A program made the translations under genes and the position numbers. Shown here one piece after another: positions 1 through 35,575 of a stretch of 64,000 bases of DNA; position 1 is the stretch's first letter; the number at the start of each line of letters is the position of its first letter. The notes under the pieces are model-generated. The model was given only the letters and a program-made list of their open reading frames with translations. It made no database searches and was not told the origin of the DNA. This stretch comes from Betaproteobacteria bacterium (GTDB taxonomy: Bacteria > Pseudomonadota > Gammaproteobacteria > Burkholderiales > Rhodocyclaceae): positions 484 through 64,483 of the forward strand of contig JADJBM010000017.1 of NCBI GenBank assembly GCA_016703785.1, read 5' to 3'.

Positions 1-278
1 TGATCTCCAAGCTCGATGCCGGTGAAGCTCCGCGTTACGCCAACCAGGCTCGCTACTTCCTCAAGAAGATTGACGACGGACTCGAAGGGTTCGGGCTGCG
101 CATCGTTAGCCTCGAAGGCCAGCCCTACGACACGGGAATGGCTGTTTCGGCTCTGAACATCGCCGACTTCGGCCCCGACGATGTTCTGTTCGTCGAACAG
201 ATGGTCGAACCGGTCGTAATGGGACCAGACGGGCTTGTCCGCGGCGGAACAGCAATGCTTGCGAAAGTGAACCCATAA
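1..278 (+). CDS. GrpE-like nucleotide-exchange factor, C-terminal fragment (5' end outside window)
   Basis: Frame 3 is open from the window edge to TAA 276-278, which overlaps the next ATG (TAATG). The tail GLRIVSLEGQPYDTGMAVSALNIADFGPDDVLFVEQMVEPVVMGPDGLVRGGTAMLAKV follows the pattern of the GrpE C-terminal beta domain. It is absent from the ORF track because it has no start codon in the window. Confidence 0.45.
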   Translation, partial: ISKLDAGEAPRYANQARYFLKKIDDGLEGFGLRIVSLEGQPYDTGMAVSALNIADFGPDDVLFVEQMVEPVVMGPDGLVRGGTAMLAKVNP

Positions 279-2771
279 TGAAAAACTACATCGGCATCGA
301 CCTCGGGACAACCAACAGCGCCGTGTGTGCCTACGACGGCGAGAACCTGCGCCTGTTCAAGAGTCCCGACCAGAACGACGTCACCCCTTCGGCCATCTTC
401 ATCGACAAGCGTTCCAACAAATACGTCGGCAAGCGCGCCTACGACAACGCCGCGCGCAACCCCGGAAAATGCGGCCACCCTCTTCAAGCGCCTGATGGGA
501 ACCAGCACCCCGGTGAAACTCCCGGCGGTCGACCTCGTCATGACGCCGGAGGAGTGCTCCGCTGAAATCTTGCGCGTGCTCTTCGGCTACATGCCCGAGG
601 AAATTCGCAACGATCCCGAGACCGGGACCGTCATCACTGTTCCTGCAGCCTTCAACCAGATGCAGAAGGACGCCACCATGGCCGCCGCCGAAATGGCTGG
701 ACTCGGCAAGGTCGCTCTAATGCAAGAGCCTGTTGCTGCCGTGATGAGCGTCATGCGCCACCGTAAAGGCGACGGTATGTTCCTCGTCTGACCTGGGCGG
801 CGGCACCCTCGACATCGCTATCGCCGATAGCATCAGCGGCCGGGTGAACCTTCTGGCCCACGGCGGAATCGCCATGTGCGGCGGCCGTGACTTCGACCGC
901 CTCCTGCACGACAACATCGTCAAGCCTTGGCTGATGAAGAACTTTGACCTGCCCGAGAACTTCTCGGCCGATAAGCGCTACACGACATTGCGCCACATGG
1001 CCACATGGGCCGCAGAAAAGGCGAAGATCGACCTATCGTCGAGCGAAGAGGCCGTCGTCACCCTCGATGACAGCGAACTGCGCGTCAAGGACGAGTCCGG
1101 CGCCGATGTCTATCTGGACATTTCCGTCACCCGAGCCACATACGATGACCTGATCGCATCCAAGCTCGAGGAGTCCGTCGCCGCCGCGCGCGCGACTATG
1201 GAAAAAGCGGGACTGAGTCCCCACGACATCGGACGAATCGTCTTCGTCGGCGGCCCGACCCAATACAAGCCCCTGCGCGACAAGATCGCCTTCGAGCTGG
1301 GCATCGCCGCGTCCACCGATGTCAATCCCATGACGGCAGTCGCCGAAGGCGCTGCGGTATTCGCCGAATCCATCGATTGGTCCAGCCAGAACCGCGGTCG
1401 CAAGAGCGGTCGCGGGGCGTTGGCCGCCGGCGGTGGCCTTGACCTCTCTTTCAACTACCAGGCCCGCACGCCGGATTCCAAGGCAAAGGTGGTCGCCAAG
1501 GTCGGAGGCAAAGTCGCCGAGGGGAGCGCATTTCAAGTCGACAGCCTCGACACCGGTTGGTCCTCAGGCAGGGCCGCCCTCACGGACGGCGCTGTAGTCG
1601 AGGTGCCATTGGCCAAACCGGGTGAAAACATTTTCAAAGTGTTCGTGTTCGACGCTGCGGGTGGCCCCGTCAAACTAACGCAGGACAAGATCGCGATCTC
1701 GCGCACTGCCGCCCAGATCGACGCGATCCCCGCGTCGCAATCGATCGGCGTGGAGGCCCGCGAAAGATTGGCGGACGCGTCATCCTCGACTACCTCGTGC
1801 GCGAGGGTGACCAACTGCCGAAGAAAGGTAAGAAGACCTTCAAGGCCGAAGAATCCTTGCGCGCCTCGGCTGCGGGATCAATTAAGTTCAAGCTTTGGGA
1901 AGGCGGCATCGAGGACCCTGTTTCAGACAACCGGTTTATCGGCATGTTTGAGATCAAGGGCTCCGACTTTTCTGACGGTGTAATTGCCAAGGGAGCGGAG
2001 CTCGTGTGCGAATACGAGATTCTCGATTCCGGCAACATCGTCCTCGAGGTTACGGTTCCCTCCATCGGAGGATCGTTCCACAGCGGACGCAACTTCTACT
2101 CGCGCCAAGAGGGCCAGATCGACTACACCAAGGCGGCCAAGCGCATTGACGAGGAGGCTGATCGCGTCGGTGGCCGCATCGACGAGATCGCATCGAAGGT
2201 CGACGATCCCAGGATCGACCAGGCCCGCGAGCGGCTCAAGCGGGCCGCCGCGTCCAAGGGCAACGAGGGCGACCCGGAAACGGCCAAGCAAGCAATGGAC
2301 GACATCCAGGAGGCCAAGAAACTTATTGCCCAAGCCCGCAAGGAGCACCAGAAAGTCATCCGTCAGATGGAGCTCGACAAGACGGTCGACTTCTTCGACT
2401 CGCGCATCCGCGAGCACGCCCGCCCCGCCGAGGCCGGAGCCTTCGACAACCTGGCCAAGACCGCGCAACGCGCCATCGACAACAACAGTGGCGACTTCGA
2501 GTCCCACCTTGACGAGCTCCGAGGCAAGAACTTCATGATCCTCTGGCGCCAGGACTGGTTCGTCATCGACCGGTTCAAGTGGCTCTCCGAGGACGCGTTC
2601 CTGTTCCCCGATGCAAACGAGCACGCGGAGCTTTGCAAAATCGGACGACAGGCTCTCCAAGCGAACGACATAGACAAGCTCCGGCAGGTTGTCGCCCATC
2701 TTGACTCGACCCGCGTCGGCACCGCCGGCGAGGACGACATGGTTGCCGGCTCCAACATTCTGGTGGGCTGA
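278..2771 (+). CDS. Hsp70-family ATPase (~830 aa) with an insert between NBD and SBD and a long helical C-terminus; frame broken 3 times
   Basis: ORF fragments 278..565, 327..791, 844..1983 and 1797..2771 join into one protein. Motifs: IGIDLGTTNS, VITVPAAF, DLGGGTLD, GGRDFD, VFVGGPTQ, NPMTAVAEGAA. An SBD-beta-like stretch follows: IPASQSIGVEA...FKLWEGG...DNRFIGMFEI...VCEYEILDSGNIVLEV. Frame switches lie at the C4 run 460-463, near 785 and near 1760. Confidence 0.85.
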
Positions 2772-2774
2772 TTC

Positions 2775-4238
2775 GTGTCTATCGAGAGCTGGCTTCCGAT
2801 TGGCTTCGAACTGCCCGACGGCGCCCGTTGCGGCCGGGCGCTGCACGGTGAGGCCAACTGGCAGATCGTCGAAACCAGGGGCAGCGGCTGCGCGCTCGTC
2901 GCCAAGACGGATTTGGTCGCCAAGTGGGTCGGCGCTGGCCTGATCGAGGACGGGGCGTTCCGCGAGTTCGCCTTCGGCGCCGAAAACTACCGCGAGGTTT
3001 CCTGCGGGGCAAGCCAATTGCTCGCGCCGCTGGCCGACTGCCGCTCGCCGGAGAACAAGAACGAAGCATTGGCGTTCGCCATGGCGATGAAGGCAACGCG
3101 GGACATCGACCCCGACAGCCCGCTACAGGACGCCCTTTACGTCGAGAAGTTCAGCCGACTGCTGCCATCCTACGGGATCACTTCGCGCACCGATGACGAC
3201 ATCGTCCTTGGCTACTGGTTGACAGGTGGCGCCCGCGTCTCCGTCAAGTCGTTCCGCCGGTTGCGGCAAATGTTAACGTGGATGGAGGCCAAGCAACTGC
3301 GGGATGTCGTCCAGAGCGCCGGATTCGAGGTTTCGGAGGTGATGCCCTTGGACGAACCCCGTCCCGCCGCGTCCTCGCCCGTTCCGGCCGAAAAGGTCGA
3401 CGGAGAACGGCCCGCCGAGCGGGAGGCCGAAGCGCCTACCCAACGTACCCCCGGCTCCTCACCCAAGCCCTTTGAGCTTCCGGGACGACCTGAGCTCGAG
3501 GAATTCTTCAACGAGCATGTGATCGACATCATTCGGAATAAGGAACGCTACAAGGCGCTCGGTGTTGGCTTTCCATCCGCTGTCGTCCTGCACGGCCCAC
3601 CCGGATGCGGGAAAACCTTCGCTGTTGACCAACTGGTCGAATACCTCGGCTGGCCGAGCTTCCAGATCGACGCGTCGAGCGTGGCGAGCCCCTACATTCA
3701 TGAGACCAGCAAGAAGGTCGCTGACATGTTTGACAAGGCTATGCAGAACGCACCTTCGGTCCTGGTAATCGACGAGATGGAGGCGTTCCTGGCCGACCGG
3801 GAAAGCGGAGGCGGCGGCAGCCACCACCGAGTCGAGGAGGTCGCCGAGTTCCTGCGGCGCATTCCAGAGGCCGCCAAGAACGAAGTGCTGATCGTGGCAA
3901 TGACCAACCGGATCGAGATGATCGATTCGGCAATCATGCGCCGAGGCCGGTTCGACCATGTCATCAAGGTCGACTACGCCAACGCCGACGAGGTTCTCGC
4001 CCTACTCGACAAACTGCTGGCCACGCTACCAAAGGACAAAACGGTGGACGCCGGACCGCTGGCCAAGAAACTCGCCGGCCGCCCACTTTCTGACGTCGCC
4101 TTCATCGTACGCGAGGGTGCCCGGCTTGCAGCACGTGCCGGAGAGGACAAGCTCGGACAAGAGTTTTTGCTCGCAGCACTCGAGGACACTCCGTCGAGAA
4201 CCGAAGAGGGTTCCAGCCGGCGCATCGGTTTCGTTTGA
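2775..4238 (+). CDS. AAA+ ATPase (classic Cdc48/FtsH-like clade) with a unique ~230 aa N-terminal region
   Basis: Intact 487 aa ORF with a GTG start 3 nt after the Hsp70 stop. Walker A is VVLHGPPGCGKT and Walker B is VLVIDEMEAF. The sensor/arginine-finger region reads LIVAMTNRIEMIDSAIMRRGRFDHVIKV. Confidence 0.85.
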   Translation: MSIESWLPIGFELPDGARCGRALHGEANWQIVETRGSGCALVAKTDLVAKWVGAGLIEDGAFREFAFGAENYREVSCGASQLLAPLADCRSPENKNEALAFAMAMKATRDIDPDSPLQDALYVEKFSRLLPSYGITSRTDDDIVLGYWLTGGARVSVKSFRRLRQMLTWMEAKQLRDVVQSAGFEVSEVMPLDEPRPAASSPVPAEKVDGERPAEREAEAPTQRTPGSSPKPFELPGRPELEEFFNEHVIDIIRNKERYKALGVGFPSAVVLHGPPGCGKTFAVDQLVEYLGWPSFQIDASSVASPYIHETSKKVADMFDKAMQNAPSVLVIDEMEAFLADRESGGGGSHHRVEEVAEFLRRIPEAAKNEVLIVAMTNRIEMIDSAIMRRGRFDHVIKVDYANADEVLALLDKLLATLPKDKTVDAGPLAKKLAGRPLSDVAFIVREGARLAARAGEDKLGQEFLLAALEDTPSRTEEGSSRRIGFV

Positions 4239-5466
4239 CCGAGGGAAACTGTGGTGCACTCCGGATCGAACGGAAAAGGAAAGGAAAGGGATTCGCGGGA
4301 CTCGACTCCATGGTTTCGGACGTCTCCGCAGACATCGAGGAAGCCGCAAAGGCAGCCCCGCCGAAGGCCCCGGAGACCCCTCCCGCACCTCCTTCCCCGC
4401 CAACCGCACCACCGGTTGCGCCGCCCTCTGCATCCGGTGGCAATTCCAACTACTCACCTCCCGGAAAATCGGGGCCATCCGGGCTTGGCTGGGTCATCGC
4501 TGGAGTCGTGGTCCTGGTAATTTGGATCGCCAATTCCGGGTCGGGAAGCAAAACCGCGACGCCATCCCCGCGTAGCCCCGAGCCCACCTATTCGTCGCCG
4601 ACCCCTGCCACTGCTCCGGCATCAGCTCCCGTTTCCGACACGCAAAAGCCCGCGGTCGGCCGCAACCAAGTGCTTGGCGTCGCGCAAATTCGATACTGCA
4701 AAACTGAGAAGATTCGAATCGAGGCGTTTGAAAGCGTCATCAACAATACCTACGACCACGAGGTGGATCGGTTCAACCGAATCGTCAACGATTACAACTC
4801 GCGCTGTGGGGAATTCCGATACCGTCGCGGGGACGTCGAACGTGTCGAGCGCGCCCGAGCGCGCTCCCATGCGTCGCCGCGAAGTCCGACGGGTGCCGCG
4901 AAGTCCAACGCTGGGTGCGACGGCAACGCTGGCCCTCGGCGCCAACCGCAAAAAAGCCCCGCGCCCAAGGACGGGAGCCCCGGCAGTGCAGACAGATCGG
5001 CCCAAAGCGGAGGCCACGATGGACTCCCTTAGTTACGCAGAGAAGGAATCAATCGAGAGCGCATGCTCGGTGCAAAAGACTCTCTACGGCCCTGCCGAAT
5101 ACAACAAATGCGTTTCCGGGAAGCTTTCAGCCTTGAAGGCCGGCCCGCGAAACATTGATTTGTCGGGACTCAGTTACGCAGAGAAGGAATTCGGCCGGAC
5201 TCGAGAGCGCAGTGCTCAGATCGCAAAAGATCTCTAAGGCCGTGCCGAAGTACAAGGCAAATGCGTTTCCAGTGGAAGCTTTCAGGCGCGAACGCGAAGG
5301 TCGACTACACCGCGAAACATTGATTTGTCGGGACTCAGGTACGCAGAGAAGGAACGCGATCGAGAGCGCATGCTCGAGTGCAAAAGAGTCTCTATGGCAC
5401 TGCCGCGAATACAACAAGTGGTCGACACAAGAATTGCAGGCAGGCCCGCACCGGAAATGCAGGTGA
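4235..5466 (+). CDS. Pro-rich single-pass membrane protein, paralogue A, with three C-terminal Cys-containing repeats (frameshifts plus in-frame TAA)
   Basis: ORFs 4235..5032 and 4674..5237 plus repeat 3. The layout is KGKGFAGLDSMVSDV, a Pro-rich stretch, a TM segment (WVIAGVVVLVIWIA), a second Pro-rich stretch, then QIRYCKTEKIRIEAFE...FNRIVNDYNSRCGEFRYRRG, which is collinear with 7116..7787. The true start may be GTG 4251, giving MVHSGSNGKGK before a shift. TAA 5235-5237 aligns with TAC in repeat 1. The terminal TGA 5464-5466 overlaps ATG 5466. Confidence 0.6.
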
Positions 5467-5470
5467 TGAA
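5027..5470 (+). repeat. Three tandem ~145-165 nt coding repeats (about 50 aa module L-S/R-YAEKE-x-IESACS-x-x-K-x-LYG-x-AEYNKC...PRNIDLSG)
   Basis: Units lie at ~5027-5169, 5170-5335 and 5336-5470. They share strings such as gttacgcagagaaggaa, cgagagcgca, aaatgcgtttcc and cgcgaaacattgatttgtcgggactcag. Units 2 and 3 carry indels and a nonsense change. Confidence 0.85.
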
Positions 5471-7109
5471 AGTAAAACCACGACGCTGCACGCCAATCCA
5501 TTCTGGATTCTTGGCGTCACGACGCGGGATGATCGCCGCAAGATTGTCGAAATGGCCGAGGAACGCTCGCTGCACATCGACCACGACCTTTGCCAGAAGG
5601 CCCGCTCCGACCTGACCAATCCGCGAGCTCGGCTTTCGGCCGAAATGGCCTGGATGCCCGGCGTCGCCCCGAGTGCAGCTGAAAAACTGGTCAAGATACT
5701 GTCTGATAACCCGGTCTTCACGCGCTCCGTGGATAGGTTACCCGAACTCGCCCGCGCGAACCTGATGGCTGCGGCCTTTGAACTTGTGGACGAGTACGAG
5801 CCGGCGGAGTCGATCGCCGAGTTCATCCGCGACTTTGCGTGGGTGGTCGAAACCATCGACGCCAGCGACGTGATGCGCGACGTCAACGAGGATCGGGCCG
5901 TTTCGGGCTTTCCCGAAGTCAGGGAGGTCGAGACGATTGAAGAGGAACTTGCATCGCGGCGCAAGGTTTACAAATCTGTGTTGAAGAATCTTCTGGACAC
6001 GATGGACCCGAACAAACTCGTCGAGACGATGACAGATGCGGTGTCGGTAGCCACCGACGACGGCGAAGATCAAGGACCTGCCCTGATCGACGAACTCGTC
6101 GACGCATACGAGGTGGAGACCCAAGCGTTCTTGCAAAAGGAGTCCGAAAACATTTCGAAGCTGGTTGAAAGCGCAAGGGTCGCCGCGCCGCAGGGGGAAC
6201 GTGCCGTAGCTCCGATACTCGACAAACTCGAGAAGGTTGCGCGCAACTGGGATCGGGTCGCCCAGCCGATCCAGCTAAGTGCCAAGTCGAGAGGAATCCA
6301 GCATCCCCACAGCCGCGAGGTCGCCTACGATCTACGCAGCCTCGGAATTGACTTGAACAACAAGCACGACATGCTCGGCCAAGCCCACCGGATGACAGGG
6401 CTGCTTCAAGAATTGTTCGCCGAATTACCCGAAGTGGCCGAGAGGCTCGGCGAGGACGCCGAGGCCATCGCCGGCCTGCGCAGACAAGCCCAGGAAAAAG
6501 AGAAGAACAATGCCAAGTGGGCACGGGACGTCACATTCAGTGCCGAGGTCGGTCTTGTCTTCAAGGATGAACTTTCCATCTCGCCAAAGGGAATCCAATG
6601 GAAGGGAGCGACCTACCCTCTCGAATCGATCACCGCAGTCCGCTGGGGCGCCGTGCGCAATTCGGTCAACGGAATACCGACGGGAACGGACTACACAATC
6701 GCGTTCGCGAACAACCGGTCCTCGCAGACGATTGAATTGAAGAAGGAGTCAACCTATTCCGGCTTCCTCGAGGCTCTCTGGCGGGCGGTTTGCGTGCGCC
6801 TGATTTTCGACATGGTCTCCGCCCTGGAGGAGGGAGGAGTTTTGGAGTTCGGAGACATAAAGGTTACGGACGACTCAGTGACGCTGACCAAGCACAAACT
6901 GCTTGGAGCCAACGAGAAGGTGCGCCTTGGCTGGCACGATGTTCATGTGTGGAGCGCCAACGGAAGTTTTGTCATCGGAAAACAAGACGACAAGAAGACC
7001 TACGGTTCCGCCTCCTACATCCGACTGGAACACTCACATTTTCGAGCATGTCGTCCGCGGCGGCTTCAAGAAGGGCGTGCGCAAACTCAGCGATTACATC
7101 AAGGATTGA
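5466..7109 (+). CDS. J-domain-like protein lacking an HPD motif, with a large C-terminal region (frameshifted)
   Basis: Main fragment is ORF 5378..7495, and the end is supplied by ORF 6903..7109 (...WNTHIFEHVVRGGFKKGVRKLSDYIKD*). The N-terminus NPFWILGVTTRDDRRKIVEMAEERSL...LTNPRARLSAEMAWMPG has the spacing of J-domain helices I-III, but HIDHD sits where HPD would be. The proposed start ATG 5466 needs a shift in the A4 run 5474-5477. A second shift lies near 7025. Confidence 0.55.
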
Positions 7110-7115
7110 CAGGAT

Positions 7116-7787
7116 ATGGCGAACGACAAGGGCAAGAAGGGATTCGCCGGGCTCGACTCGATGGTCTCGGACGTGGAAGTGCCCAAGCCGAGGCCCGCTC
7201 CGGCCCCGACCCCGGAACCAGTTCGACAGCAGGAGGCGCCCCGGCCGAGCGCCGAGCCCAAGCCGGCCTATTCACCCCCGAAGCCTTCGGGCGGAGGCGC
7301 CGGCAAATGGTGGGCCATCGGAATCGGAGTGGTGGTTCTGTTCTCTTGGCTCGGGGGCTCCGACAAAAAATCTTCCGCCCGTTCCGCGCCGACTCCCTCA
7401 TATTCGGCGCCATCGTATTCCGCTCCAGCTCCGGCTCCGGCTGCAGCGCCTGCATATACTCCGCCCGCCTACGTTCCAGAGCCCGCGCCTGTTAACGTCA
7501 CAAATGACGAGGAAATGCCGCCGGTCGGAAGTGGCCTGTCCCTGAGCAGGTCGCAGATCCGCTATTGCCTCTCTGAAAAGATTCGTGTCACCGCGTGGCA
7601 GGGGCAGGTGAACGAATATTCGGAATCCTCCGTGGGCGCGTTCAACGAGGCCGTGCGTGACTACAACTCCCGCTGCTCGAGCTTCCGCTATCGGAGTGGC
7701 GCGCTCGAAAGTGTGCGCGCGGAGGTGGAAGCGAACCGCTATGCCCTCCAACTCGAGGGTATTCGTAGCGCGGCGGTGAATCCATGA
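7116..7787 (+). CDS. Pro-rich single-pass membrane protein, paralogue B
   Basis: Intact 223 aa ORF. Layout: MANDKGKKGFAGLDSMVSDV, Pro-rich stretch, TM (WWAIGIGVVVLFSWLGG), Pro/Ala/Ser-rich stretch, then QIRYCLSEKIRVTAWQ...FNEAVRDYNSRCSSFRYRSG. Same architecture and motifs as 4235..5466. Confidence 0.75.
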   Translation: MANDKGKKGFAGLDSMVSDVEVPKPRPAPAPTPEPVRQQEAPRPSAEPKPAYSPPKPSGGGAGKWWAIGIGVVVLFSWLGGSDKKSSARSAPTPSYSAPSYSAPAPAPAAAPAYTPPAYVPEPAPVNVTNDEEMPPVGSGLSLSRSQIRYCLSEKIRVTAWQGQVNEYSESSVGAFNEAVRDYNSRCSSFRYRSGALESVRAEVEANRYALQLEGIRSAAVNP

Positions 7788-10102: not shown

Positions 10103-10863
10103 TCAATGCAGCACCGTCGCAGCGCCGCAGCACTTCTTGAACTTCTTGCCGCTGCCGCAGGGGCACGGATCGTTGCGGCCCACCTTGGGATGCGCCCTCT
10201 GGTAGGTCGCCGCCAGCATGCGTTCATGCACGGCCTTGCGGTAAGGCAACCAGTAGCGATAAATGGCGGCCAGGCCAGCCGGGATCTGCTTGGCGAGTTC
10301 TTCACGCTGGGCGGGCGTCCGGGTCAATTTTTCCTCATCCTTGGTGACCTTGTCCGCCCCCAGGAGATAGATCGGGCGCAGGGCTGCAGACGCCTGCGTA
10401 TCGTCGTAGAGGGACTGCCAGTCCTCCCGGCAAAGGGCAATGCCCTGCATGAAACCATAGGCCCACATTTCGGCGTCCAGGTATTCCTTCCGGTCATTGC
10501 CGAAGGTGGTGATGTTGAACAGCGGCTCGAAGGCGTCCGGATCATCCTGGAAACTCCAGACGATGCCGTTCATGTGCCGGGTAATCAGGTCGAGGATGCG
10601 CTGGGCCTGCTCCAGGGTCTCGAATTCGGGCGCATGTTCCTCCCCGGGCCCCAGATGCCTGGCAGCCAATCCTGCATTCTGACCGTGGTTGGCCCAATGA
10701 TGATCGCGGTGAGATAGCCGTCCAGCTGATCGAGCATCATCGTCTCGTCGGATACGGCATCCGACATCAGGAAATCATCGAGTTCGTCGATTTCCTCTTC
10801 GGACAGGGGCACCATCAGACGGGCGGGGTTGCGGTCGGGCACGATCGATATCTCTGAAGGCAC
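10103..10863 (-). CDS. UPF0149/YecA-like protein with C-terminal SEC-C metal-binding motif (one frameshift)
   Basis: ORFs 10585..10863 and 10103..10669 join near 10650. The first gives [39 protein letters not shown]. The second ends in [18 protein letters not shown]. Confidence 0.75.
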
Positions 10864-11001
10864 TGGCTTGATGGCAAGGGCAACCGCTCAGGCTGGTGCA
10901 GTTGGTTCTGGGGGGATGGCTTAAGAGCCGACACACGCGCCACCTCCTCCGTGAACCACCTCCCAACCGGTAGGTTCGATGCCAATGTCGCTGCCGCCAA
11001 T

Positions 11002-11484
11002 TCATTTCTCCGATGTAATAGCCCCGACCCGTCTTGCCTCGTACCTCTTGGCAGTCGGGTGCACAAGATAAGGCTTGTCCTCGATTGTTTTGAGCAGATC
11101 TTGCCGCGCTTTGACCGCCCGCTTGAACGCTCCGTCATAGCCATATCTTTTCACCGAAAAAGTCCGCGTCAGTTCTTTCCCGTCGGGCAACTTCAACCTG
11201 GCCTGCCATGAGCCCAGCGGCTGCTTTCTGGGGTGGATGAACTGGACGCCGGGAACCCCGCTCTGATTATTTGCGCGCACCAGCTGGTGGAATTCCCGTT
11301 TGCCCAAGGCCCGCGTTTTGGCGAGCCGATCGTCGCGCCACCCGATTGCGGCAGCCAAGGCCTTCTTCGAGCCACCCATCTTCAGATCGTAGAAACTCTT
11401 GTAGTGCGACTTCCCCGACCGCCGGAAATGCACCGACCAGCACCAGACGCCGGGCTTGGCCTCTATTCGGCTGATGGCATACAT
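11002..11484 (-). CDS. AP2/ERF-type DNA-binding protein (two AP2-like repeats)
   Basis: WCWSVHFRRSGKSHYKSFYDLKMGGSKKALAAAIGWRD, then SGVPGVQFIHPRKQPLGSWQARLKLPDGKELTRTFSVKRYGYDGAFKRAVKARQ. Confidence 0.7.
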   Translation of the reverse strand: MYAISRIEAKPGVWCWSVHFRRSGKSHYKSFYDLKMGGSKKALAAAIGWRDDRLAKTRALGKREFHQLVRANNQSGVPGVQFIHPRKQPLGSWQARLKLPDGKELTRTFSVKRYGYDGAFKRAVKARQDLLKTIEDKPYLVHPTAKRYEARRVGAITSEK

Positions 11485-11754
11485 GGGATGAGAGCAAAAT
11501 GAAACAGGCCATCCGAGATCATAATGAAATCGCTCACCCGGCCCTTACTGCCCGGGCTTAGAACAGGCTTTTCCAGGTTCATGCGCAAACACGCAAGATA
11601 CTGACATTGCCTGCCAATGATACCGATCCAACGGTGCCATACGCCTCGGATCCCCGATTAACTGCGGGAGAACCTGAGGACAAAACGAACGATAAGAATC
11701 CGGCGGCAATGGCTTCAAACCACCCAAACATCGTGGCGGGCGAAGAGCTTGGTA

Positions 11755-12048
11755 TTACCGCCGAGAACGAGCGACGGTCCGCGGCCTGACATTCTTGGCG
11801 CCCAATTTCGACGTCTCAATGGGTGCCAGTAACTCGAGGACATCGACGCCCAGGGCGATAGCCAACCGCTCCAGCCCATCCACGGAGATATTCGTAACGC
11901 AGCGCTCCAGCTGCGACACATACGTTCGATGGAAATCCGCCAGCTCGGCCATTTCCTCCTGGCTCAGCCCGCGCTCCCTGCGCAGGCACCGGACATTCTC
12001 GGCAATCCGCCGGCGCGCCTCTCCAACCGTTTGATTTGTTGTGCCCAT
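11755..12048 (-). CDS. XRE-family transcriptional regulator (97 aa)
   Basis: IAENVRCLRRERGLSQEEMAELADFHRTYVSQLERCVTNISVDGLERLAIALGVDVLELL is a canonical HTH_3 sequence. Confidence 0.85.
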   Translation of the reverse strand: MGTTNQTVGEARRRIAENVRCLRRERGLSQEEMAELADFHRTYVSQLERCVTNISVDGLERLAIALGVDVLELLAPIETSKLGAKNVRPRTVARSRR

Positions 12049-12201
12049 AGTAGGCGGAGAGTGACCGCCTACGGGCTTTGTATCTACAGAATAATACTCT
12101 ACTGTTTATTACTCTCTTTTTGGTAAGATTGGCTTGTCATTCTTTTTGCCCTTCGCCCCGTCCCTCCGCAGGGGAAAAGGGCGTGACCAACAGGAACAGC
12201 C

Positions 12202-13305
12202 ATGAAACCACTATGTTGCTTATTGGCATTGGCGACCGTGATCGCCGGAAAGCCCGTGCTGGCCCAGAACCCGATTGCCGAGCTCGGCGGTTCAACTTAC
12301 CGGGAGAAGGCGGTTTACGCCGTCTATGATCTGCCGGGCACAACCCGTCAGGCGGACGCCATCGAGGGGATCGTGCTTGACGCCCTCCGCACCTATGCTC
12401 GAAATGCCCAGGTTCGTTACGGCATCCCCCCTTCCCCCTACCCCGACTACCCGAGCCAGATGACCATCGGTCAGCGCCTGAGCGGAGGGCCTAAACCGGA
12501 CTGCGCTGGCGAACTTCTCTCCATTGAGGGGCTCGACACCTCGATGGCGAAGTACGGGGAGAAGATTTACCACCGTGTTTGCCTGTTCCCCTACAGCGGC
12601 GGTCTCCGGATCAACTACTTCGCCCTCTACGGCCAGCAGTCCGGGGCAGGCAACGCCAATCCCAATGTGCTTGCTGCCATGCTTGGCCGGGCCATTGGTG
12701 GCGCCATGGGCCTGGGCGACAGCAGCGCCACCATCAACAAGCTCCTAGCCAGGCTGGAAAATGGACTCCAGACGGCCGGGATCGGCTTCAAGTTGGTGCA
12801 GTTGCATCCGAAGGACCTGGCCGGCCGGACAGTGGTGGAGGACGATATTCCCCGACCTGCAACCAGGGCCGTAGCTTCCGCCCAGGTTCAGGCAACGACG
12901 ACGGAACCCGCTCAGCCCGCGCAGGCATCCCCAGCCCAGACGACGGCGATGATGCCTGCCCCCGTGCCGCCGGCAATGGCCCAGTTGCAGGCGGCCCTGC
13001 TGCAACAGCGCGAAATGGCCCGCCAGCAGATGGCGGCACAACTGCCGCCACAGGGCCAGCCCGAGCGGAGACTTGCAGCTGCCGCTGCCCGCAAGGAACT
13101 CACGGCCATGGGGCTCCAGTACTTTAGCCAGGAGCAGTTTCTGGCGGCCATTCGCCGCGGAGACGTCTTGGCTGTGGATCTGTTCATCACCGGCGCCGGT
13201 ATCGACTTGAATGCCGGCGCCCCTGGAGCAACGCCCCTGGCCATTGCGGAAAGCAATGGGCGACAAGACATCGTCGCCCTGCTGAAAACCGGCGGGGCAC
13301 GCTGA
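12202..13305 (+). CDS. Secreted protein with Ala/Gln/Pro-rich linker and C-terminal ankyrin-like repeat
   Basis: Signal peptide MKPLCCLLALATVIAGKPVLAQ. The C-terminus FLAAIRRGDVLAVDLFITGAGIDLNAGAPGATPLAIAESNGRQDIVALLKTGGA fits the ANK consensus. Confidence 0.6.
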   Translation: MKPLCCLLALATVIAGKPVLAQNPIAELGGSTYREKAVYAVYDLPGTTRQADAIEGIVLDALRTYARNAQVRYGIPPSPYPDYPSQMTIGQRLSGGPKPDCAGELLSIEGLDTSMAKYGEKIYHRVCLFPYSGGLRINYFALYGQQSGAGNANPNVLAAMLGRAIGGAMGLGDSSATINKLLARLENGLQTAGIGFKLVQLHPKDLAGRTVVEDDIPRPATRAVASAQVQATTTEPAQPAQASPAQTTAMMPAPVPPAMAQLQAALLQQREMARQQMAAQLPPQGQPERRLAAAAARKELTAMGLQYFSQEQFLAAIRRGDVLAVDLFITGAGIDLNAGAPGATPLAIAESNGRQDIVALLKTGGAR

Positions 13306-13307
13306 AC

Positions 13308-14258
13308 ATGCGACGCCTGTCCTGCGAAGTTCTGTTTGTAGGCTTGCTGATCGGCATGCCAGCGGCGGCTCAGCAATCCCCAATACTCGATGCCAGTGGC
13401 GACGGTTCGACAACGCCACGCTCGCGACTGGCATCGATCAAGGCCGTCACGGTATATCTGCACCGTGCCGAGGAGCGATGGTCAGCCAGCCTGGAGGGCG
13501 ACGTCAAGGATGCTGCCACCGAGAAAATCGAGGTCACGCTGGCGGACGGTTCCCTTCGCGTGCTAACCCAGCCGCTACCCAAGGGGAGCAAGCTCTGCCT
13601 GACCAAGATGAAGGACCGGGAGCAGTTCGGCTACCTGGAGTGCAATTCGGCCTTCTTCTCCGCTAACACAGGATCGACGGCCGCGGCGACGGTTCTGCGC
13701 GGTGTCCTGAGCCTGGGGATACTGACGGTTTCCGATGCGGCTTCGGGCAATACGGGATTCACCGTTTCCCTCGACCGGCAAGCCCTCGATGCGGCGGTGA
13801 GTGAATCAAAAGCCATCGAATTCGCCCGGAAATCGGCGCCACTGATCGAATACCGCAAAGCATTTGAGAGTGCCATCTCCGCCAGACAGCTGAGCGAATT
13901 CATTGCCCGCTACGAAGGCGCGTCCGATCCGGAATCGCTGGTCGTCAAGGCAAAGGAAAAACTGCCGCTCGCCATGGAGCAGGAGGAGGCTCGTGCGAAG
14001 CAAAAGTCGGAGGCCGCGGCCCGGCAGGCGGAAGCGCAGAGGCAGCAAGAAATCCAGCGGCAGGCGGAATCGGAGGCTTTAAGGCAGTTCCAGGCGAAAC
14101 TTAAGCCAGGCGATCGGGTGAAGATGATGCGGACCCATTACGCAGCGTTCCATGGATTGGTCATCGAAGTAAAGCCGCCGCTGGCCTATATCCAATGGGA
14201 GAACGTTACGCCGCCAATGCAGTGGGTTCGCGTCGAGCAACTCTTGCCGTCACCATGA
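13308..14258 (+). CDS. Secreted hypothetical protein with coiled-coil and small C-terminal beta domain
   Basis: Signal peptide LFVGLLIGMPAAAQQ. It has a charged QEEARAKQKSEAAARQAEAQRQQEIQRQAESE stretch. The start lies 3 nt after the previous stop. Confidence 0.55.
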   Translation: MRRLSCEVLFVGLLIGMPAAAQQSPILDASGDGSTTPRSRLASIKAVTVYLHRAEERWSASLEGDVKDAATEKIEVTLADGSLRVLTQPLPKGSKLCLTKMKDREQFGYLECNSAFFSANTGSTAAATVLRGVLSLGILTVSDAASGNTGFTVSLDRQALDAAVSESKAIEFARKSAPLIEYRKAFESAISARQLSEFIARYEGASDPESLVVKAKEKLPLAMEQEEARAKQKSEAAARQAEAQRQQEIQRQAESEALRQFQAKLKPGDRVKMMRTHYAAFHGLVIEVKPPLAYIQWENVTPPMQWVRVEQLLPSP

Positions 14259-14361
14259 GGATAGAATCTCTAATCGTGGAGCTGCTGTTGGGTCTGTTCG
14301 GTCCGTGCGTCTGCATTTTGGGGCATCAGCTGGCATTGATGTCCATCACGCAAATCAATGA

Positions 14362-14873
14362 CTATCTTTTCGGAGACAGTTCTTTATCGTTGTATTTGGG
14401 CAAAGCTTTATGCTCTCCCAGGTAAGTCGCCAAGGCATCGTACTCGGCTTTCGCAACCCGACCCATCAGCTTCAAATCGCGTGACGTTTCTGGTTTCAGC
14501 CCAGGCTTGGAACTAAAGAATGGGCTTACCGATACAAAAAGCTTCTTCGCGAGGACATCCCCTTCTTATGCTTGCGTTCGTTCTGACAAGAATCGCGCCG
14601 CACCACCATGCCCTGCGCCAGGGAGGTCGCGTAGGGTATTGTTGAATTGCTTCAGCCTGCCGGCGAATCCTTTAATCGAATTCGTCATGCCGAAATAGAC
14701 GATGTCTTTCTCCCACTTAAAATCCTTGCCAGTCATGTCCGTTTTTTTGATATAGCAAGCGCATAGATGCCGCGAAATTTCAAGAGATCCTTCCCGGAGA
14801 TGGTCCTTTTCCCAACCTCCATCTTCAGAACAATTTCACGCTCATCCCATTTCGCCCACTTGGAAAATTTCAT
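14362..14873 (-). pseudogene. GIY-YIG-like protein remnant (T7/A7 frameshift plus in-frame TAA)
   Basis: AGGAG lies 8 nt upstream of ATG 14873. The sequence is MKFSKWAKWDEREIVLKMEVGKRTISGKDLLKFRGIYALAISKK. It is then broken at the homopolymer 14742-14748. The adjusted frame continues DMTGKDFKWEKDIVYFGMTNSIKGFAGRLKQFNNTL (GIY ... YFG spacing). An in-frame TAA near 14566 is followed by about 65 more open codons. Confidence 0.35.
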
Positions 14874-15028
14874 CTGAGCTCTCCTGAAAGTACATCGATG
14901 TTGCATGCTACACAGTGGCGATATGGAGACGCAATAGGAATAACTATCCCAATGACCAGAGCCCAACCTTAAGCGACACATCATGTCGCTCATAGTTAGA
15001 AAATGGTCTTCGAACATCGGAGACCAGC

Positions 15029-17125
15029 ATGGCCAAACGCCGCAATCCTCGCAGATCCCTCAACCCCCTCGACATTCCTCCTATCGTCAGGCTCTGGCTT
15101 CTGCGAATCCTCGTCCCCTTGGGCGGATATCGGGAATTCATTTCCTACAGCGAAATCAGGAGCGATCCGCTGGCCATAGCGGTTGGACTGGAGGAGTGGA
15201 TTGATCCTTCGCCCCGCGAATATGACCAGAAGACCGCAACGACGCAGCTTCGCAAGATTTATCAGGCTTGCGAAGACGAGTCGTGGGACGCTATGGTGCC
15301 CTCCTGCCTCCAGCGCAACGTCAAGCGCCTGGCCGATCTGGCCAACTTGTCGGAGACGGACTGCCGAATTCTCGAATTCGCCGTGATACTGAATGACGGG
15401 CAGCTAGTCGCTTTAGCGGCCGATTATCTTGGAGAACTGTCGACCCTCAAGTTGTTCAACGCGCTGACTGTGGTGCTGGATCTTTCCGAACGGGATGTTT
15501 GCGCCTCGCTGAGTCCGCATGGCGTTTTGGCCACGACAGGCCTGCTCTCCATAGATCGGCAGGGCACATCCTCCCTGCGCGAGAAGTTCGACCTCCTTTC
15601 CAGGAGCTTTGCGGATCACATTCTGTCCTTTGACGCAGACCCGGTCGTTCTGCTGCGCGATATCCTTACACCCAGTACGCCAGCGGAGCTTTCGCTTGCC
15701 GATTTTGATCATGTCGGTGAGTCGCTCTCCCTGCTCCTGCCCTATCTCAAGCACGCCCTCACCACCGGCCGGAAAGGCGTCAACATTTTCCTGCAGGGCC
15801 AGCCCGGCACCGGCAAGAGCCAGCTGGCCAAGCTACTTGCAAAGGAGTTCGACTGCGAGCTGTTCGAAGTCGCCAGCGAGGACAGCGAGAACAAGCCGGT
15901 AGACGGCGAGCGGCGCCTGAGGGCATTCAAGGCTGCCCAATGTTTCTTCTCGAAGCGCAGGGCGATCCTGCTTTTCGATGAGGTGGAGGACGTCTTCGAC
16001 GATGGCGACTACGGCTTTGGTCGCAAGAGCACCGCGCAGACCCGAAAAGCCTGGATCAATCGTATTCTGGAAAGCAACCCGGTGCCGACGCTGTGGCTGT
16101 CGAACTCGATCCAGAGCCTCGATCCGGCATTCATTCGCCGTTTCGACATGGTCATCGAGCTTCCACTACCGTCCCGGCGGCAACGGGAGCGAATCATCCG
16201 GGAGGCCTGCTCGGACCTACTTGACGAAGCGGATATGGACCGCATTGCCGAGCACGAGTCACTCGCTCCTGCAGTCGTGACCCGCGCCGCATCCGTGGTC
16301 CGCACAATCCACCAGGAGCTTGACAGTTGCGATGCAGCCAGAGCCATGGCGTTACTGATCGGCAACACGCTCGAAGGACAAGGCTATCCGCGTCTCCGTA
16401 GCAGCGACGATAACCGCCTGCCGGAGTTCTACGACACCGCTTTCATCAATGCCGATGCGGACCTCGCAAAGATTGCCGAGGCCCTCATCGCAGCCCGGCC
16501 AGGGCGTCTGTGCCTGTTCGGTCCGCCCGGGACCGGGAAAACGGCCTATGGGAAGTGGCTGGCCGACCGCCTCGACCTGCCGCTGCAGACTAAAAGGGCT
16601 TCCGATCTGCTGTCGATGTGGGTCGGCGAGAGCGAGAAGAAAATTGCCCGCACCTTCAGGCAGGCGGCCGAGGAGAATGCCCTGCTGATGATCGACGAGG
16701 TCGACAGCTTCCTGCAGGATAGGCGCGGCGACCTGCGAGGATGGGAGACCAGCCTGGTCAATGAAATGCTGACCCAGATCGAGTCCTTCCCCGGCGTGTT
16801 CATCGCCTCGACCAACCTGCTGAGAAATCTCGACCAGGCGGCGCTGCGCCGTTTCGACCTCAAGATCAAGTTTGACTTCATGACGTGCGAGCAGGCTGCG
16901 AAGCTGCTGTGCCGCTTCTGTGCCATGGCGAACATCCCTGCGCCCGGCCCTGATCACCTGATACGGCTGGCGCGCCTGCGCGGGCTGACGCCGGGCGACT
17001 TCGCCGTGATGGCCCGGCGCCACCGCTTCCATCCTTTCGCTTCCTGCGACGCCTTGATCGAGGCGCTCGAGGCCGAATGCGAGATCAAGGAAGGCCCGAC
17101 GGCTGCCATCGGCTTCCTGCAATAG
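15029..17125 (+). CDS. Tandem AAA+ ATPase (two AAA modules, 698 aa) with unique N-terminal domain
   Basis: Intact ORF. Module 1 has NIFLQGQPGTGKSQLAK and AILLFDEVEDVF. Module 2 has LCLFGPPGTGKTAYGK, ALLMIDEVDSFL and FIASTNLLRNLDQAALRRFDLKI. Confidence 0.85.
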   Translation: MAKRRNPRRSLNPLDIPPIVRLWLLRILVPLGGYREFISYSEIRSDPLAIAVGLEEWIDPSPREYDQKTATTQLRKIYQACEDESWDAMVPSCLQRNVKRLADLANLSETDCRILEFAVILNDGQLVALAADYLGELSTLKLFNALTVVLDLSERDVCASLSPHGVLATTGLLSIDRQGTSSLREKFDLLSRSFADHILSFDADPVVLLRDILTPSTPAELSLADFDHVGESLSLLLPYLKHALTTGRKGVNIFLQGQPGTGKSQLAKLLAKEFDCELFEVASEDSENKPVDGERRLRAFKAAQCFFSKRRAILLFDEVEDVFDDGDYGFGRKSTAQTRKAWINRILESNPVPTLWLSNSIQSLDPAFIRRFDMVIELPLPSRRQRERIIREACSDLLDEADMDRIAEHESLAPAVVTRAASVVRTIHQELDSCDAARAMALLIGNTLEGQGYPRLRSSDDNRLPEFYDTAFINADADLAKIAEALIAARPGRLCLFGPPGTGKTAYGKWLADRLDLPLQTKRASDLLSMWVGESEKKIARTFRQAAEENALLMIDEVDSFLQDRRGDLRGWETSLVNEMLTQIESFPGVFIASTNLLRNLDQAALRRFDLKIKFDFMTCEQAAKLLCRFCAMANIPAPGPDHLIRLARLRGLTPGDFAVMARRHRFHPFASCDALIEALEAECEIKEGPTAAIGFLQ

Positions 17126-17167
17126 CCATCCTTATGGGATATTCTGTCGGCACACACCACTAAGCCT

Positions 17168-18680
17168 ATGATGCGCACGCTCTCGAAAACCAAGCTGCTG
17201 GCCTACAGGCAGTGCCCGAAGCGGCTCTGGCTCGAAATCCATCGCCCCGAGCTGCGGCAGGATTCCTCAACGACCCAGGCCAGCTTTAATGCCGGTCATG
17301 AAGTTGGCAGAGTGGCGCGGCGGCTGTATGACCCGGCGGGAAAGGGGCAACTGATCGATGTCATGGCGGAAGGATTCGACGCCGCCCTTGCCAGGAGCCG
17401 TGAGCTGCTGGGATCGTCACGGCCGATATTCGAGGCCGGGTTTGCGGCGGAGGGCGCGCAGGCCTTCGCCGACGTGATGCTGCCTATGAAGAGGGCTGGC
17501 AAACGTGCCTGGCGCATGATCGAGGTGAAGTCCTCGACCAGCATCAAGGACTACTACCGCGACGACGCGGCGATCCAGACCTTCGTCGCCAGAAATGCCG
17601 GCGTTCCCCTGGCGTCCGTCGCGCTCGCCCATATCGATAGCAAGTGGGTCTATCCAGGTAGCGAGGATTACCAGGGCCTGCTCAAGGAAAACGACCTGAC
17701 CGAAGAGGCCTTCGGTCGGGAATCCGAGGTCGTCGAGTGGATCGCCAACGCACACGCCATCGCGCGCAAGCGCGCAGAACCGAAGATAAGTACCGGCAGC
17801 CACTGCTCGAAGCCTTACGAATGCGGCTTCCTGGCTCATTGCCAGAGCCGGGAGCCGCAATCGGACTACCCGGCTGCCTGGCTCCCGCGCATCCAGTCCA
17901 GGAAACTCAAGGCGCTGATCGATGAGGAAGGGGTTGCCGACCTGCGCCAGGTTCCCGATGCCCTGCTCAATGATCGCCAGTTGCGTGTCAAGCACAGCAC
18001 GCTCACCGGCAAGGCATACTTCGATGCCGAACAGGCCGCCGCCGAGCTGGCGGCGCACAAGCTCCCGGCTTACTTCCTGGATTTCGAGACCATCCTGTTT
18101 GCCGTGCCCGTCTGGAAGGGCGCGCGGCCCTACCAGCAGATTCCCTTTCAGTTCAGCGTGCATATGCTGTCGCGTAGCGGAAAGCTGAGCCACGTATCGT
18201 TTCTCGATCTCTCGGGCAACGATCCTGCGAAGGCGCTGGCCGAAGCGCTGATTGCCGCCCTGGGCGAGCGCGGCCCGGTCTTCGTCTATAACGAGAAGTT
18301 CGAAAAGGCGCGCATCAACGAGCTCGCAGAACGTTTCCCGCGCATGCGGCGAGCCCTGCTGGCCATCAATGAGCGGATCGTCGATCTGATGAAGATCGCC
18401 GAGACGCACTATTATCATCCCAGCCAGCAGGGGAGCTGGAGTATCAAGAAGGTGCTGCCGGCCGCAGTGCCCGATCCCAGGCTGCGCTATGATTCGCTCT
18501 CCGGAGTACAGGACGGCGGCATGGCCATGAGAGCCTACATCCAGGCGCACCTCTCCTGCGGCGTCCCGGTCGGACAAGGAACGCATAGAGAAAGAGCTGC
18601 TCGAATACTGCTGGCTCGACACCTACGGCATGGTTCGCCTCTGGCAGTTCTTCTCCGGCCGCAACGATCTGGCGATCTAG
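17168..18680 (+). CDS. DUF2779-family protein (PD-(D/E)XK-like N-terminus plus RNase H-like exonuclease fold); one frameshift near 18555
   Basis: N-terminus LSKTKLLAYRQCPKRLWLEIH, then IEVKSST, CSKPYECGFLAHC and YFLDFETI...IPFQFSVH. The true C-terminus is recovered in another frame as DKERIEKELLEYCWLDTYGMVRLWQFFSGRNDLAI*, with TAG at 18678-18680. The ORF track fuses it to the next gene as 17168..19675. Confidence 0.75.
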
Positions 18681-18685
18681 ATCCG

Positions 18686-35572: not shown

Positions 35573-35575
35573 GCC

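Follow-up and report, generated by a model that had tools for sequence, protein, structure and literature searches.

We analysed a window of 64,000 nucleotides (nt), the whole stretch of contig JADJBM010000017.1 (assembly GCA_016703785.1) that was available to us from a Betaproteobacteria bacterium of the Rhodocyclaceae, and we describe here the gene cassette at its positions 1–7787. On the forward strand this cassette holds six genes in one direction, which we call small, Hsp70, AAA+, mem1, big and mem2. A first-pass annotation of the sequence had described them as a GrpE-like protein, an Hsp70 with an insert between its nucleotide-binding domain (NBD) and the beta part of its substrate-binding domain (SBD-beta), a classic-clade AAA+ ATPase with a novel N-domain, a J-like protein (big) carrying HIDHD in place of HPD, and two single-pass membrane paralogues that flank big and share the N-terminal peptide KGFAGLDSMVSDV. 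The results below uphold this description, with one qualification: HIDHD does replace HPD in big, while a relationship of big to J-domains is weakly supported. We also found that the cassette is a copy of an autonomous operon that occurs widely and moves horizontally. On balance, it probably encodes a dedicated chaperone/AAA+ machine that acts on envelope sensors, with a predicted role in defence or conflict.

A six-gene cassette at the start of the window

The small-gene stop overlaps the Hsp70 ATG at 278 (TAATG, 276–280). The end of Hsp70 (2771) and the GTG of AAA+ (2775) are separated by a 3-nt gap (2772–2774), the mem1/big junction reads TGATG (5464–5468), and a 6-nt gap (7110–7115) lies between the big TGA (7107–7109) and the mem2 ATG (7116). 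All four junctions, which had been read before, are present in the sequence. The features of the cassette are as follows.

3–278, forward: small gene, GrpE-like nucleotide-exchange factor; 3′ part, 91 of about 125 codons, as the window begins inside the gene
278–2771, forward: Hsp70, 831 residues once three indels are repaired; 99% identity to the intact P0001 and P0002
about 278–1360, forward: Hsp70 NBD (BLASTP against DnaK, Pfam HSP70)
1369–1716, forward: Hsp70 insert of about 105–120 residues, a stretch without DnaK counterpart
1717 to about 2072, forward: Hsp70 SBD-beta-like segment (BLASTP and hhalign against DnaK)
2073–2771, forward: Hsp70 C-terminal tail of about 230 residues, following the SBD-beta-like segment
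2775–4238, forward: AAA+ ATPase, 487 residues, intact, single module, classic clade (Pfam AAA, 7.5e-31)
3594–3617, forward: AAA+ Walker A motif
3687–3704, forward: AAA+ pore-loop-like motif SPYIHE (aromatic position)
3759–3782, forward: AAA+ Walker B motif
3939–3956, forward: AAA+ motif RRGRFD (arginine pair)
about 4235–5466, forward: mem1, single-pass membrane protein with several frame breaks, from its open reading frames (ORFs); start uncertain (TTG at 4235 or later)
4286–4324, forward: mem1 N-terminal peptide KGFAGLDSMVSDV, from the sequence
4484–4531, forward: mem1 transmembrane span (Kyte–Doolittle 19-residue maximum 2.12)
about 4649–4852, forward: mem1 conserved two-Cys domain (family conservation)
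about 4935–5463, forward: mem1 variable C-terminus with three Cys-containing repeats (direct repeats spaced 141/165 nt)
5466–7109, forward: big, putative adaptor, 547 residues (547–551 in relatives); 90–97% identical to intact P0121 and P0124
5495–5665, forward: big N-terminal J-like four-helix unit with LHIDHD replacing HPD (AlphaFold2, hhalign)
about 6530 to the 3′ end of the gene, forward: two PH-like beta-plus-helix modules of big (AlphaFold2, Foldseek)
7116–7787, forward: mem2, minimal paralogue of mem1, 223 residues, intact ORF; 40% identical to mem1
7137–7175, forward: mem2 peptide KGFAGLDSMVSDV, from the sequence
7308–7355, forward: mem2 transmembrane span (hydrophobic span)
about 7518–7730, forward: mem2 conserved two-Cys domain (family conservation)

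In the window, the intact ORFs of the cassette are AAA+ (2775–4238) and mem2 (7116–7787). The frame of Hsp70 is broken at about 464 (+1), 790 (−2) and 1763 (−1), that of big at about 5478 and 7022 (−2), and that of mem1 several times within its repeat region (4906–5400). Joining the Hsp70 frames gave a protein of 831 residues; along its whole length it shares 99% identity with the intact 831-residue database proteins P0001 and P0002. A second copy of the cassette, L007, lies on a contig of a metagenome-assembled genome (MAG) with 96.5–97% DNA identity to the window; it has frameshifts of its own at about 2551 and 7449 (window coordinates), and its frames are unbroken at the window's break positions. 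The long genes of the DISARM-like locus further along the window show the same pattern: each falls into two adjacent ORFs, which correspond to consecutive parts of a single PADLOC model. Because Hsp70 can be repaired to 99% identity, the breaks of L007 lie elsewhere and the DISARM-like genes are also split, assembly-wide indel error is the economical explanation, and the frame breaks in the window are most likely assembly indels rather than signs of decay. No promoter or terminator was found in a scan 3′ of mem2 in the window.

A divergent Hsp70 and its GrpE-fold partner

The NBD of the cassette Hsp70 is 35% identical to that of Escherichia coli DnaK (BLASTP, E = 2e-49), and the phosphate- and adenosine-binding motifs IDLGTTNS, DLGGGT.D, EP.AA and VGGPT are conserved in 27 Hsp70 orthologues. 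The Pfam HSP70 match covers the NBD only (model positions 2–373 of 599). The NCBIfam DnaK model PRK00290 scored 207.9 bits, against a cut-off of 648, with a match that spans residues 1–364 only, and the HscA model scored 197 bits against a cut-off of 620. Between the end of the NBD (residue 361) and the start of the SBD-beta-like segment (residue 481) there are about 119 residues, versus 14 in DnaK. Residues 481–562 align to DnaK 392–461 (BLASTP, E = 0.05), and hhalign places them on the DnaK SBD-beta in the same register (E = 0.017). A profile of the C-terminal half, searched against the Protein Data Bank (PDB), matched only designed helical proteins and a Rad50 coiled coil. In DnaK, Arg167 contacts the Asp of the J-domain HPD motif; in the BLASTP alignment this position is Ala in the cassette Hsp70. 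We therefore rejected canonical DnaK identity: the NBD motifs are present, while the protein falls below the family cut-off, has neither the hydrophobic interdomain linker nor Arg167, and is not a core gene. The scores far under the DnaK and HscA cut-offs, the replacement of Arg167 by Ala and the lack of HPD in the cassette all agree with the earlier view of the Hsp70 set as non-canonical.

The part of the small protein encoded in the window is 99% identical to the small protein of another copy of the cassette, L008. An AlphaFold2 model of the near-identical P0301, made with 31 homologues, had a mean predicted local distance difference test (pLDDT) score of 88.3 and consists of two helices and six strands. 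As seen from a Foldseek search of this model against the PDB, ranks 1–8 are all GrpE (9a81, 3a6m, 4ani, 9bls, 8gb3, 1dkg), with probabilities of 0.87–1.0 and E = 2e-3 to 6e-2, and the next match has E = 1.1; these GrpE proteins come from E. coli, Thermus, Geobacillus, M. tuberculosis and human mitochondria. The Nitrosococcus orthologue is named 'Nucleotide exchange factor GrpE' in UniRef. By sequence, the small protein matched neither Pfam GrpE nor any other Pfam or NCBIfam model at E <= 0.1, its profile did not find GrpE among PDB sequences, and hhalign against E. coli GrpE gave E = 0.095. It falls short of GrpE sequence membership and, with only about 125 residues, of the full-length N-terminal coiled-coil helix. 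Judged from the model, the small protein is a GrpE fold, cut down to about 125 residues.

The AAA+ ATPase, the membrane proteins and big

The AAA+ protein has one PF00004 module, at residues 270–400, and no Clp domains. Its nearest solved chains are NVL, Cdc48/p97 and AFG2 (1e-47 to 1e-43, over the AAA module only), and residues 1–245 matched nothing in Pfam or in PDB sequence searches. NCBIfam matches to FtsH, PAN and CDC48 were all far under their cut-offs. The likeness to the anti-phage ATPase IetA (PADLOC, 1.9e-25) amounts in NCBIfam to 86.1 bits for IteA_antiphage, against a cut-off of 510.

In mem1 and mem2 alike, the N-terminal peptide is accompanied by a linker rich in Pro, a single hydrophobic span and a conserved two-Cys domain of some 95 residues. 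In the mem family, GF[AS]G at the N-terminus is invariant and the two Cys of the domain are conserved. The mem1 assignment was supported by tblastn with the mem proteins of loci L008, L004 and L001. Tandem Repeats Finder reported nothing for the mem1 repeats, which are visible only by a seeded direct-repeat search. The family is very diverse: at 50% identity its members with E <= 1e-10 form 1073 clusters, and they are 190–590 residues long. PG_binding_1 was found in 19 of 85 long homologues, and PG_binding_2, RodZ_C, TonB_C, EGF-like Cys-rich, Ank and TPR modules are further C-terminal modules among these 85. Since the C-terminal modules are often peptidoglycan-binding, the C-terminus is predicted to be periplasmic and the N-terminal peptide cytosolic. 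Minimal mem proteins of about 200–230 residues have no C-terminal module, and the full cassette is still kept with them. The window and L007 are about 97% identical throughout except at 4851–5487 (L007 14575–15356), the mem1 C-terminal module, where they are non-homologous; the module of the window resembles Janthinobacterium repeats rather than its L007 counterpart. This implies, from the alignments, that the predicted periplasmic module of mem1 was exchanged by recombination between near-identical loci.

The homologues of big form 1609 clusters, all named 'hypothetical' and none with a Pfam domain. The AlphaFold2 model of big (pLDDT 91.6) consists of four short helices (residues 15–65), a long helical bundle (72–359) and two beta-plus-helix modules (361–458 and 463–540). 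Foldseek against the PDB gave no match at E <= 0.001, the best partial matches being BAR-PH, FERM and bacterial PH proteins; because nothing significant was found, the fold combination is unmatched and gives no indication of function. In about one third of big proteins only the first ~340 residues are retained, and the C-terminus is a different one. Pfam and NCBIfam searches of these variant big proteins and of intact small, mem and big proteins returned essentially nothing besides PG_binding_1.

The HPD tripeptide is absent from the big family, where the corresponding position holds L-x-x-D-x-[DE] (LHIDHD, LELDHD, LLHDAD and others), with His not conserved and Pro rare. Big had no Pfam DnaJ match. 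Three sequence tests were made for a J-domain. The full-length big alignment, compared with the E. coli DnaJ J-domain by hhalign, gave a spurious internal alignment in the wrong region, and the N-terminal profile found no J protein in the PDB. Against a small, hand-assembled profile of nine J sequences, hhalign placed big residues 7–53 on J positions 5–64 (P = 0.002, probability 14%) in the expected register, with NPFxxLGV on DYYxILGV, D-H-D on H-P-D and LTNPRxRL on LSDxxKR. A J-domain origin of the big N-terminus is plausible.

Distribution, gene order and mobility

A pattern-plus-tblastn scan of one genome per species, with the big alignment as query, yielded 34 loci, and gene order was mapped for these and for loci fetched through Hsp70. 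Over 25 independent loci, spread across six or more major lineages, have the common order small–Hsp70–AAA+–mem–big, and their Hsp70 identities are 50–99%. The lineages include Alpha-, Beta- and Gammaproteobacteria, Nitrospira, Desulfovibrio, Synergistaceae and Poribacteria, and the hosts include Nitrosococcus, Janthinobacterium, Massilia, Piscinibacter, Zestomonas, Serratia, Rouxiella, Buttiauxella, Thalassovita, Hyphomicrobiales and Nitrospira, among others. Such recurrence in several phyla takes the arrangement beyond chance, and it answers a question that the first-pass annotation had raised, namely whether the order exists outside close relatives. Permuted orders were also seen: big–mem in Burkholderia, Paraburkholderia, Desulfovibrio and Vibrio, and mem first in a Synergistaceae MAG. 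A Poribacteria MAG has no AAA+ and two big genes, and a second, minimal mem gene follows big in the window, L007 and L024.

Hsp70s of 75–86% identity are common to Alpha-, Beta- and Gammaproteobacteria, and identities of 50–99% across phyla indicate horizontal spread. Among 5426 complete E. coli genomes, two carry the cassette, inside a tRNA-Phe island. Plasmid-borne cassettes were found in Shewanella, Polaromonas, Vibrio and Aeromonas, and on an Aeromonas IncP plasmid the cassette lies directly downstream of Tn7-like TnsC/D/E genes. A phage genome collection contained no big homologue, and IMG/VR contained two loci only. Between loci there is no conserved upstream regulatory region, as the ribosome-binding site of the small gene marks the upstream limit of conservation; the similarity between the window and L007, its closest relative, ends about 170 bp past mem2; and, scattered SNase-like and resolvase genes aside, no flanking gene family recurs in as many as three loci. 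As the upstream DNA is unrelated beyond the ribosome-binding site and flanking genes are not shared, the cassette is an autonomous unit. The terms 'self-contained' and 'accessory', applied to it before any relatives had been compared, are thus both apt.

Wherever the neighbouring genes were examined one by one, the context proved to be an island or a mobile element. The neighbours in Nitrosococcus are QatABCD, a BrxR-type WYL regulator and an SNF2 gene; in Janthinobacterium-like contigs, integrases, a DUF927/pRha element, GmrSD and a P4-like element; in L007, CBASS, a DUF4011 helicase and Shedu; in L008, MmeI, a KAP NTPase and a resolvase; and in Poribacteria, GmrSD and a type III restriction-modification system. 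In E. coli HeN100, where the cassette occupies 4115537–4122320 of NZ_CP044443.1 (WP_076487106 to WP_133301086), the tRNA-Phe island also carries RADAR rdrB and a dptF remnant. When 103 neighbour proteins from 22 more loci were pooled and scanned with PADLOC, there were strong matches to Shango SngABC, PsyrTA, BrxH, DpdF, PbeA, WYL and type I and type III restriction-modification systems. The cassette is thus recurrently sited beside known defence systems on variable islands and mobile elements, as a count of occurrences rather than a background-corrected enrichment.

Some loci carry additional genes. In L024, from a Rhodocyclales MAG, a second big–mem pair (10664–14227) lies downstream of the full six-gene set. 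Its big ORF is over-extended, as the ORF was taken from the first start codon that follows a stop, and opens with a Cys-rich (CxxC) stretch, like the zinc-ribbon-like N-terminal extension of the 669-residue big of Nitrosococcus. In a Nitrosococcus-type subclade (L013, L026 and L030) a conserved gene of about 214 codons follows big, and in Nitrosococcus it is truncated to 86 residues by an insertion sequence. In L044 (Aeromonas caviae pKAM471_1, 13671–17478) the ~214-residue gene is followed by five more co-directional genes, one of them for an RDD-family membrane protein, and the cassette with its added genes lies directly downstream of Tn7-like transposition genes. Related SNase-like genes are found near three cassettes (L023 11613–12152, L007 21211–21693 and L008 5553–6164), and in the Nitrospira locus the SNase-like gene begins immediately after big, which may be an occasional effector or a coincidence.

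Comparison with known systems

The combination had not been recognised as a named system on first inspection, and our searches agree. In PADLOC-DB v2.0.0, screened with all cassette fragments, the small, Hsp70, mem and big fragments had no match at E <= 0.01, the AAA module hit only the generic models IetA and TRIP13, and no model covers the cassette. No description of the cassette was found in the literature within the reach of our search, which did not extend to subscription-only papers. The gene combination thus appears to be new and so far undescribed.

The closest known systems in composition are DnaK-DnaJ-GrpE, HscA/HscB and HscC/DjlC, to which the cassette compares in the DnaK-like NBD (35% identity) and its conserved nucleotide-binding motifs, in a GrpE-fold partner just upstream, and in a partner whose N-terminus aligns weakly with a J-domain. 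The idea of a private Hsp70 with private co-chaperones has a parallel in HscA/HscB. Unlike in these systems, however, an insert of about 105–120 residues replaces the VLLL interdomain linker of the Hsp70, its SBD can hardly be recognised and is followed by a ~230-residue tail; GrpE is cut to 125 residues, HPD is missing and Arg167 is Ala; and the genes are linked to an AAA+ ATPase and membrane proteins and are accessory and horizontally transferred, not core. The pairing of an Hsp70 with a hexameric-type AAA+ protein that has an aromatic pore loop recalls the Hsp70–Hsp100 systems (DnaK–ClpB/Hsp104) and suggests that a polypeptide may be handed over for threading. In contrast to Hsp100, the cassette AAA+ has a single module, nearest to Cdc48/NVL/AFG2, with no M-domain, no Clp N-domain and a unique N-domain of 245 residues; with one PF00004 module and no Clp domains, it was rejected as a ClpB/Hsp100 disaggregase.

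The mitochondrial presequence-translocase motor consists of mtHsp70, the GrpE protein Mge1, the J-protein Pam18, the J-like Pam16, which lacks HPD, and the tether Tim44. By analogy, the cassette also combines an Hsp70, a GrpE and an HPD-less J-like protein, apparently at a membrane and on an extended client segment, and the import motor would be a precedent for an Hsp70 that works as a pulling motor. The two share no homology beyond the Hsp70 and GrpE folds, and the cassette has no channel, is bacterial and mobile, contains an AAA+ protein and lies in a defence-island context. ZorAB of Zorya, another occupant of defence islands, offers a purely functional analogy, as it joins a membrane component that has a periplasmic peptidoglycan-binding module to energy-consuming cytosolic proteins; the cassette differs in having neither a MotAB-like stator nor a nuclease effector, and its energy would come from ATP through Hsp70 and AAA+.

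Hsp70-family NBDs and SBDs are also known from predicted defence operons. CoCoNuT CnuD and McrB–Hsp70 fusions belong to predicted conflict systems with McrBC GTPase/nuclease, in which the Hsp70s have degenerate ATPase motifs (PMC11090510), and GAP1-N2 TRAFAC GTPase systems contain HSP70, GrpE and DnaJ-domain proteins (Kaur et al. 2020, PMC7159879); FNIII or tubulin components occur among these systems (PMC11090510, PMC7159879). We rejected the first, as no cassette protein matched an McrB-type GTPase or McrC/DUF2357 in Pfam or PADLOC, and the second, as Pfam found no GTPase or FNIII in the cassette. IetAS (Gao_Iet) was also rejected, since the AAA likeness is limited to the generic module (86.1 bits versus 510) and the cassette has no IetS protease, and bNACHT25-DnaJ, screened in the literature, is a different system. 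More broadly, bacterial DnaK derivatives have been described as 'DnaK-derivative dark matter' that is largely unexplored (2026 review, PMC13580251).

Predicted role and alternatives

Anti-phage or anti-mobile-element defence, triggered at the envelope, is the most likely role that we can predict for the cassette. In the mechanism that we propose, big would be of J-domain origin and, as an adaptor or co-chaperone, would recruit Hsp70 to the membrane protein: its PH-like modules would place it at the membrane, and its N-terminal unit would dock on Hsp70 through a non-canonical interface. The absence of HPD from big and that of Arg167 from Hsp70 would then be linked losses. The mem proteins may offer a handle, made up of their basic-plus-hydrophobic N-terminal peptide K-G-F-A-G-L-x-S-M-V and their long, unstructured Pro-rich tail, which Hsp70 (through its SBD), the AAA+ unfoldase or both could grip or pull. 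The state of the periplasmic peptidoglycan- or ligand-binding module would in this way be coupled to an ATP-driven cytosolic or membrane response, and candidate outputs are membrane damage by a released or remodelled mem protein, or the unfolding of an invader protein. This specific pulling-motor picture is much less likely than the broader reading of a chaperone/AAA+ machine in defence. A bolder version makes the cassette the first immune system that runs on a complete Hsp70 cycle, a chaperone-powered transmembrane mechanosensor in which import-motor logic is repurposed for defence. Here a membrane-tethered Hsp70/GrpE motor and a Cdc48-like unfoldase would act on a single-pass sensor by holding its cytosolic tail or pulling on it, while the exchangeable periplasmic module of the sensor would bind peptidoglycan or other ligands of the envelope. 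Phage envelope damage or a phage protein would alter the load on the sensor, upon which the ATPases would give a protective or abortive output. We put this version forward tentatively, and consider it rather doubtful as a whole.

Several points weigh against a defence machine of this kind. Pfam and NCBIfam recognised no toxin, nuclease or other classical effector in the core cassette. The defence association was judged locus by locus and from a pooled tally, not against the genomic background, and in a Pfam scan the pooled neighbours included ordinary genes such as those for LysR regulators and glycosyltransferases. Substrate binding by the C-terminal half of Hsp70 is putative, given the weak SBD-beta alignments, the J-domain assignment of big fails two of the three sequence tests, and the contacts among the cassette proteins are ones that we infer. 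Finally, several genes of the window are broken, and if these breaks were real the window copy would be dead.

The last point can be extended to the view, anticipated by the first-pass annotation, that the breaks in Hsp70, mem1 and big are genuine and that the window holds a decaying array encoding nothing functional. The 7.8 kb of the cassette contain eight or more frame breaks, and two of those in Hsp70 and big are 2-nt deletions outside homopolymers. Indels aside, however, the proteins are 91–99% identical to intact relatives and contain no premature stops made by substitution, and the 97%-identical L007 is broken at other positions (~2551 and 7449) while the DISARM-like genes of the window are split too, so that the breaks look like assembly error and we regard decay as improbable. 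The same annotation had considered that the genes could be the host's own dnaK-dnaJ-grpE set in an unusual arrangement, which would account for an Hsp70 beside a GrpE-fold protein. E. coli possesses its own dnaK, dnaJ and grpE, and the cassette occurs in only two of its 5426 complete genomes, within an island; the Hsp70 scores 208 and 197 bits against the DnaK and HscA cut-offs of 648 and 620, there is neither a DnaJ Pfam match nor an HPD, and near-identical Hsp70s in distantly related classes point to horizontal transfer. A housekeeping set is thus next to impossible.

Two alternatives accept an intact, mobile machine and differ in its purpose. The cassette could be a module for envelope proteostasis or stress tolerance, the other of the two readings offered at first inspection, in which Hsp70, GrpE and AAA+ extract, refold or clear damaged membrane or periplasm-anchored proteins and the mem proteins serve as stress sensors, with a logic that would resemble transmissible heat-resistance loci. 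A full ATP-driven chaperone kit (Hsp70, exchange factor and unfoldase), the lack of an obvious toxin, peptidoglycan-binding sensors that could report envelope stress, and plasmid carriage in wastewater and clinical isolates all fit this idea, but the small heat-shock protein, ClpK/ClpG and protease genes of such loci are absent among the Pfam hits of the cassette, the neighbours are mostly anti-phage systems and not stress genes, and the diversified, module-swapped periplasmic end of mem is typical of conflict rather than of housekeeping quality control. We consider a stress module unlikely, and favour defence or conflict over it because of the genomic context. Alternatively, the mem proteins might themselves be the functional products, for instance surface or periplasmic factors anchored to peptidoglycan that act in competition between bacteria, adhesion or exclusion of conjugative DNA, and the rest of the machine would assemble, regulate or turn them over. 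In line with this, the copy numbers of mem and big change together and both are always found with the ATPases, the mem family, at 1073 clusters of 50% identity, shows far greater diversity than the ATPases do, and its C-terminal modules bind protein or peptidoglycan. Yet minimal mem proteins of ~200–230 residues, without any C-terminal module, keep the whole cassette, no secretion genes are linked to it, and the context favours phage defence, which makes mem biogenesis an outside chance, a little above that of decay.

If the defence reading is true, a full Hsp70 cycle together with a Cdc48-like unfoldase would be a new engine in prokaryotic immunity, and the cassette would provide a second route, besides stator-type systems, for reading envelope events from the cytosol. 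For chaperone biology, it offers a genetically tractable case of 'DnaK-derivative dark matter' (PMC13580251), with a natural minimal GrpE, an HPD-less putative co-chaperone paired with an Arg167-less Hsp70, and a candidate client peptide. The cassette is about 7 kb long, and intact copies are present in E. coli and Serratia isolates, among them E. coli HeN100 and Serratia grimesii; the cassette also occurs on plasmids.

Neighbouring genes in the window

The WYL protein (17168–19675), the integrase (21734–22732) and the DISARM-like genes (27545–40037) named in the first-pass annotation were all confirmed downstream of the cassette.

21734–22732, reverse: tyrosine integrase (Integrase_1/Phage_int_SAM_2), between the WYL module and the DISARM-like locus

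The position of the integrase is consistent with an integrative island. The DISARM-like locus, on the forward strand, contains a DruE/DrmA-like DEAD helicase with Helicase_C and an MrfA Zn-binding (DUF1998-type) domain, a DpdE/DrmD-like SNF2 ATPase and a DrmMI-like methyltransferase. Within it, a 542-residue ORF (35514–37142, forward) has weak PADLOC matches to pAgo (1.5e-10) and to an Ago-associated SIR2 model over about 110 residues. Between the cassette and the integrase, at 12202–19675 on the forward strand, two unannotated ORFs (367 and 316 residues) are followed by a 698-residue ATPase with two AAA modules (IetA/TRIP13-like) and, as the last gene, an 835-residue DUF2779–WYL–WCX protein; this stretch may be a separate defence or regulatory module. 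A UPF0149 and SEC-C-motif protein is encoded near the window cassette (10103–10669, reverse), and a SEC-C-motif protein near that of L008 (4133–5296, reverse).

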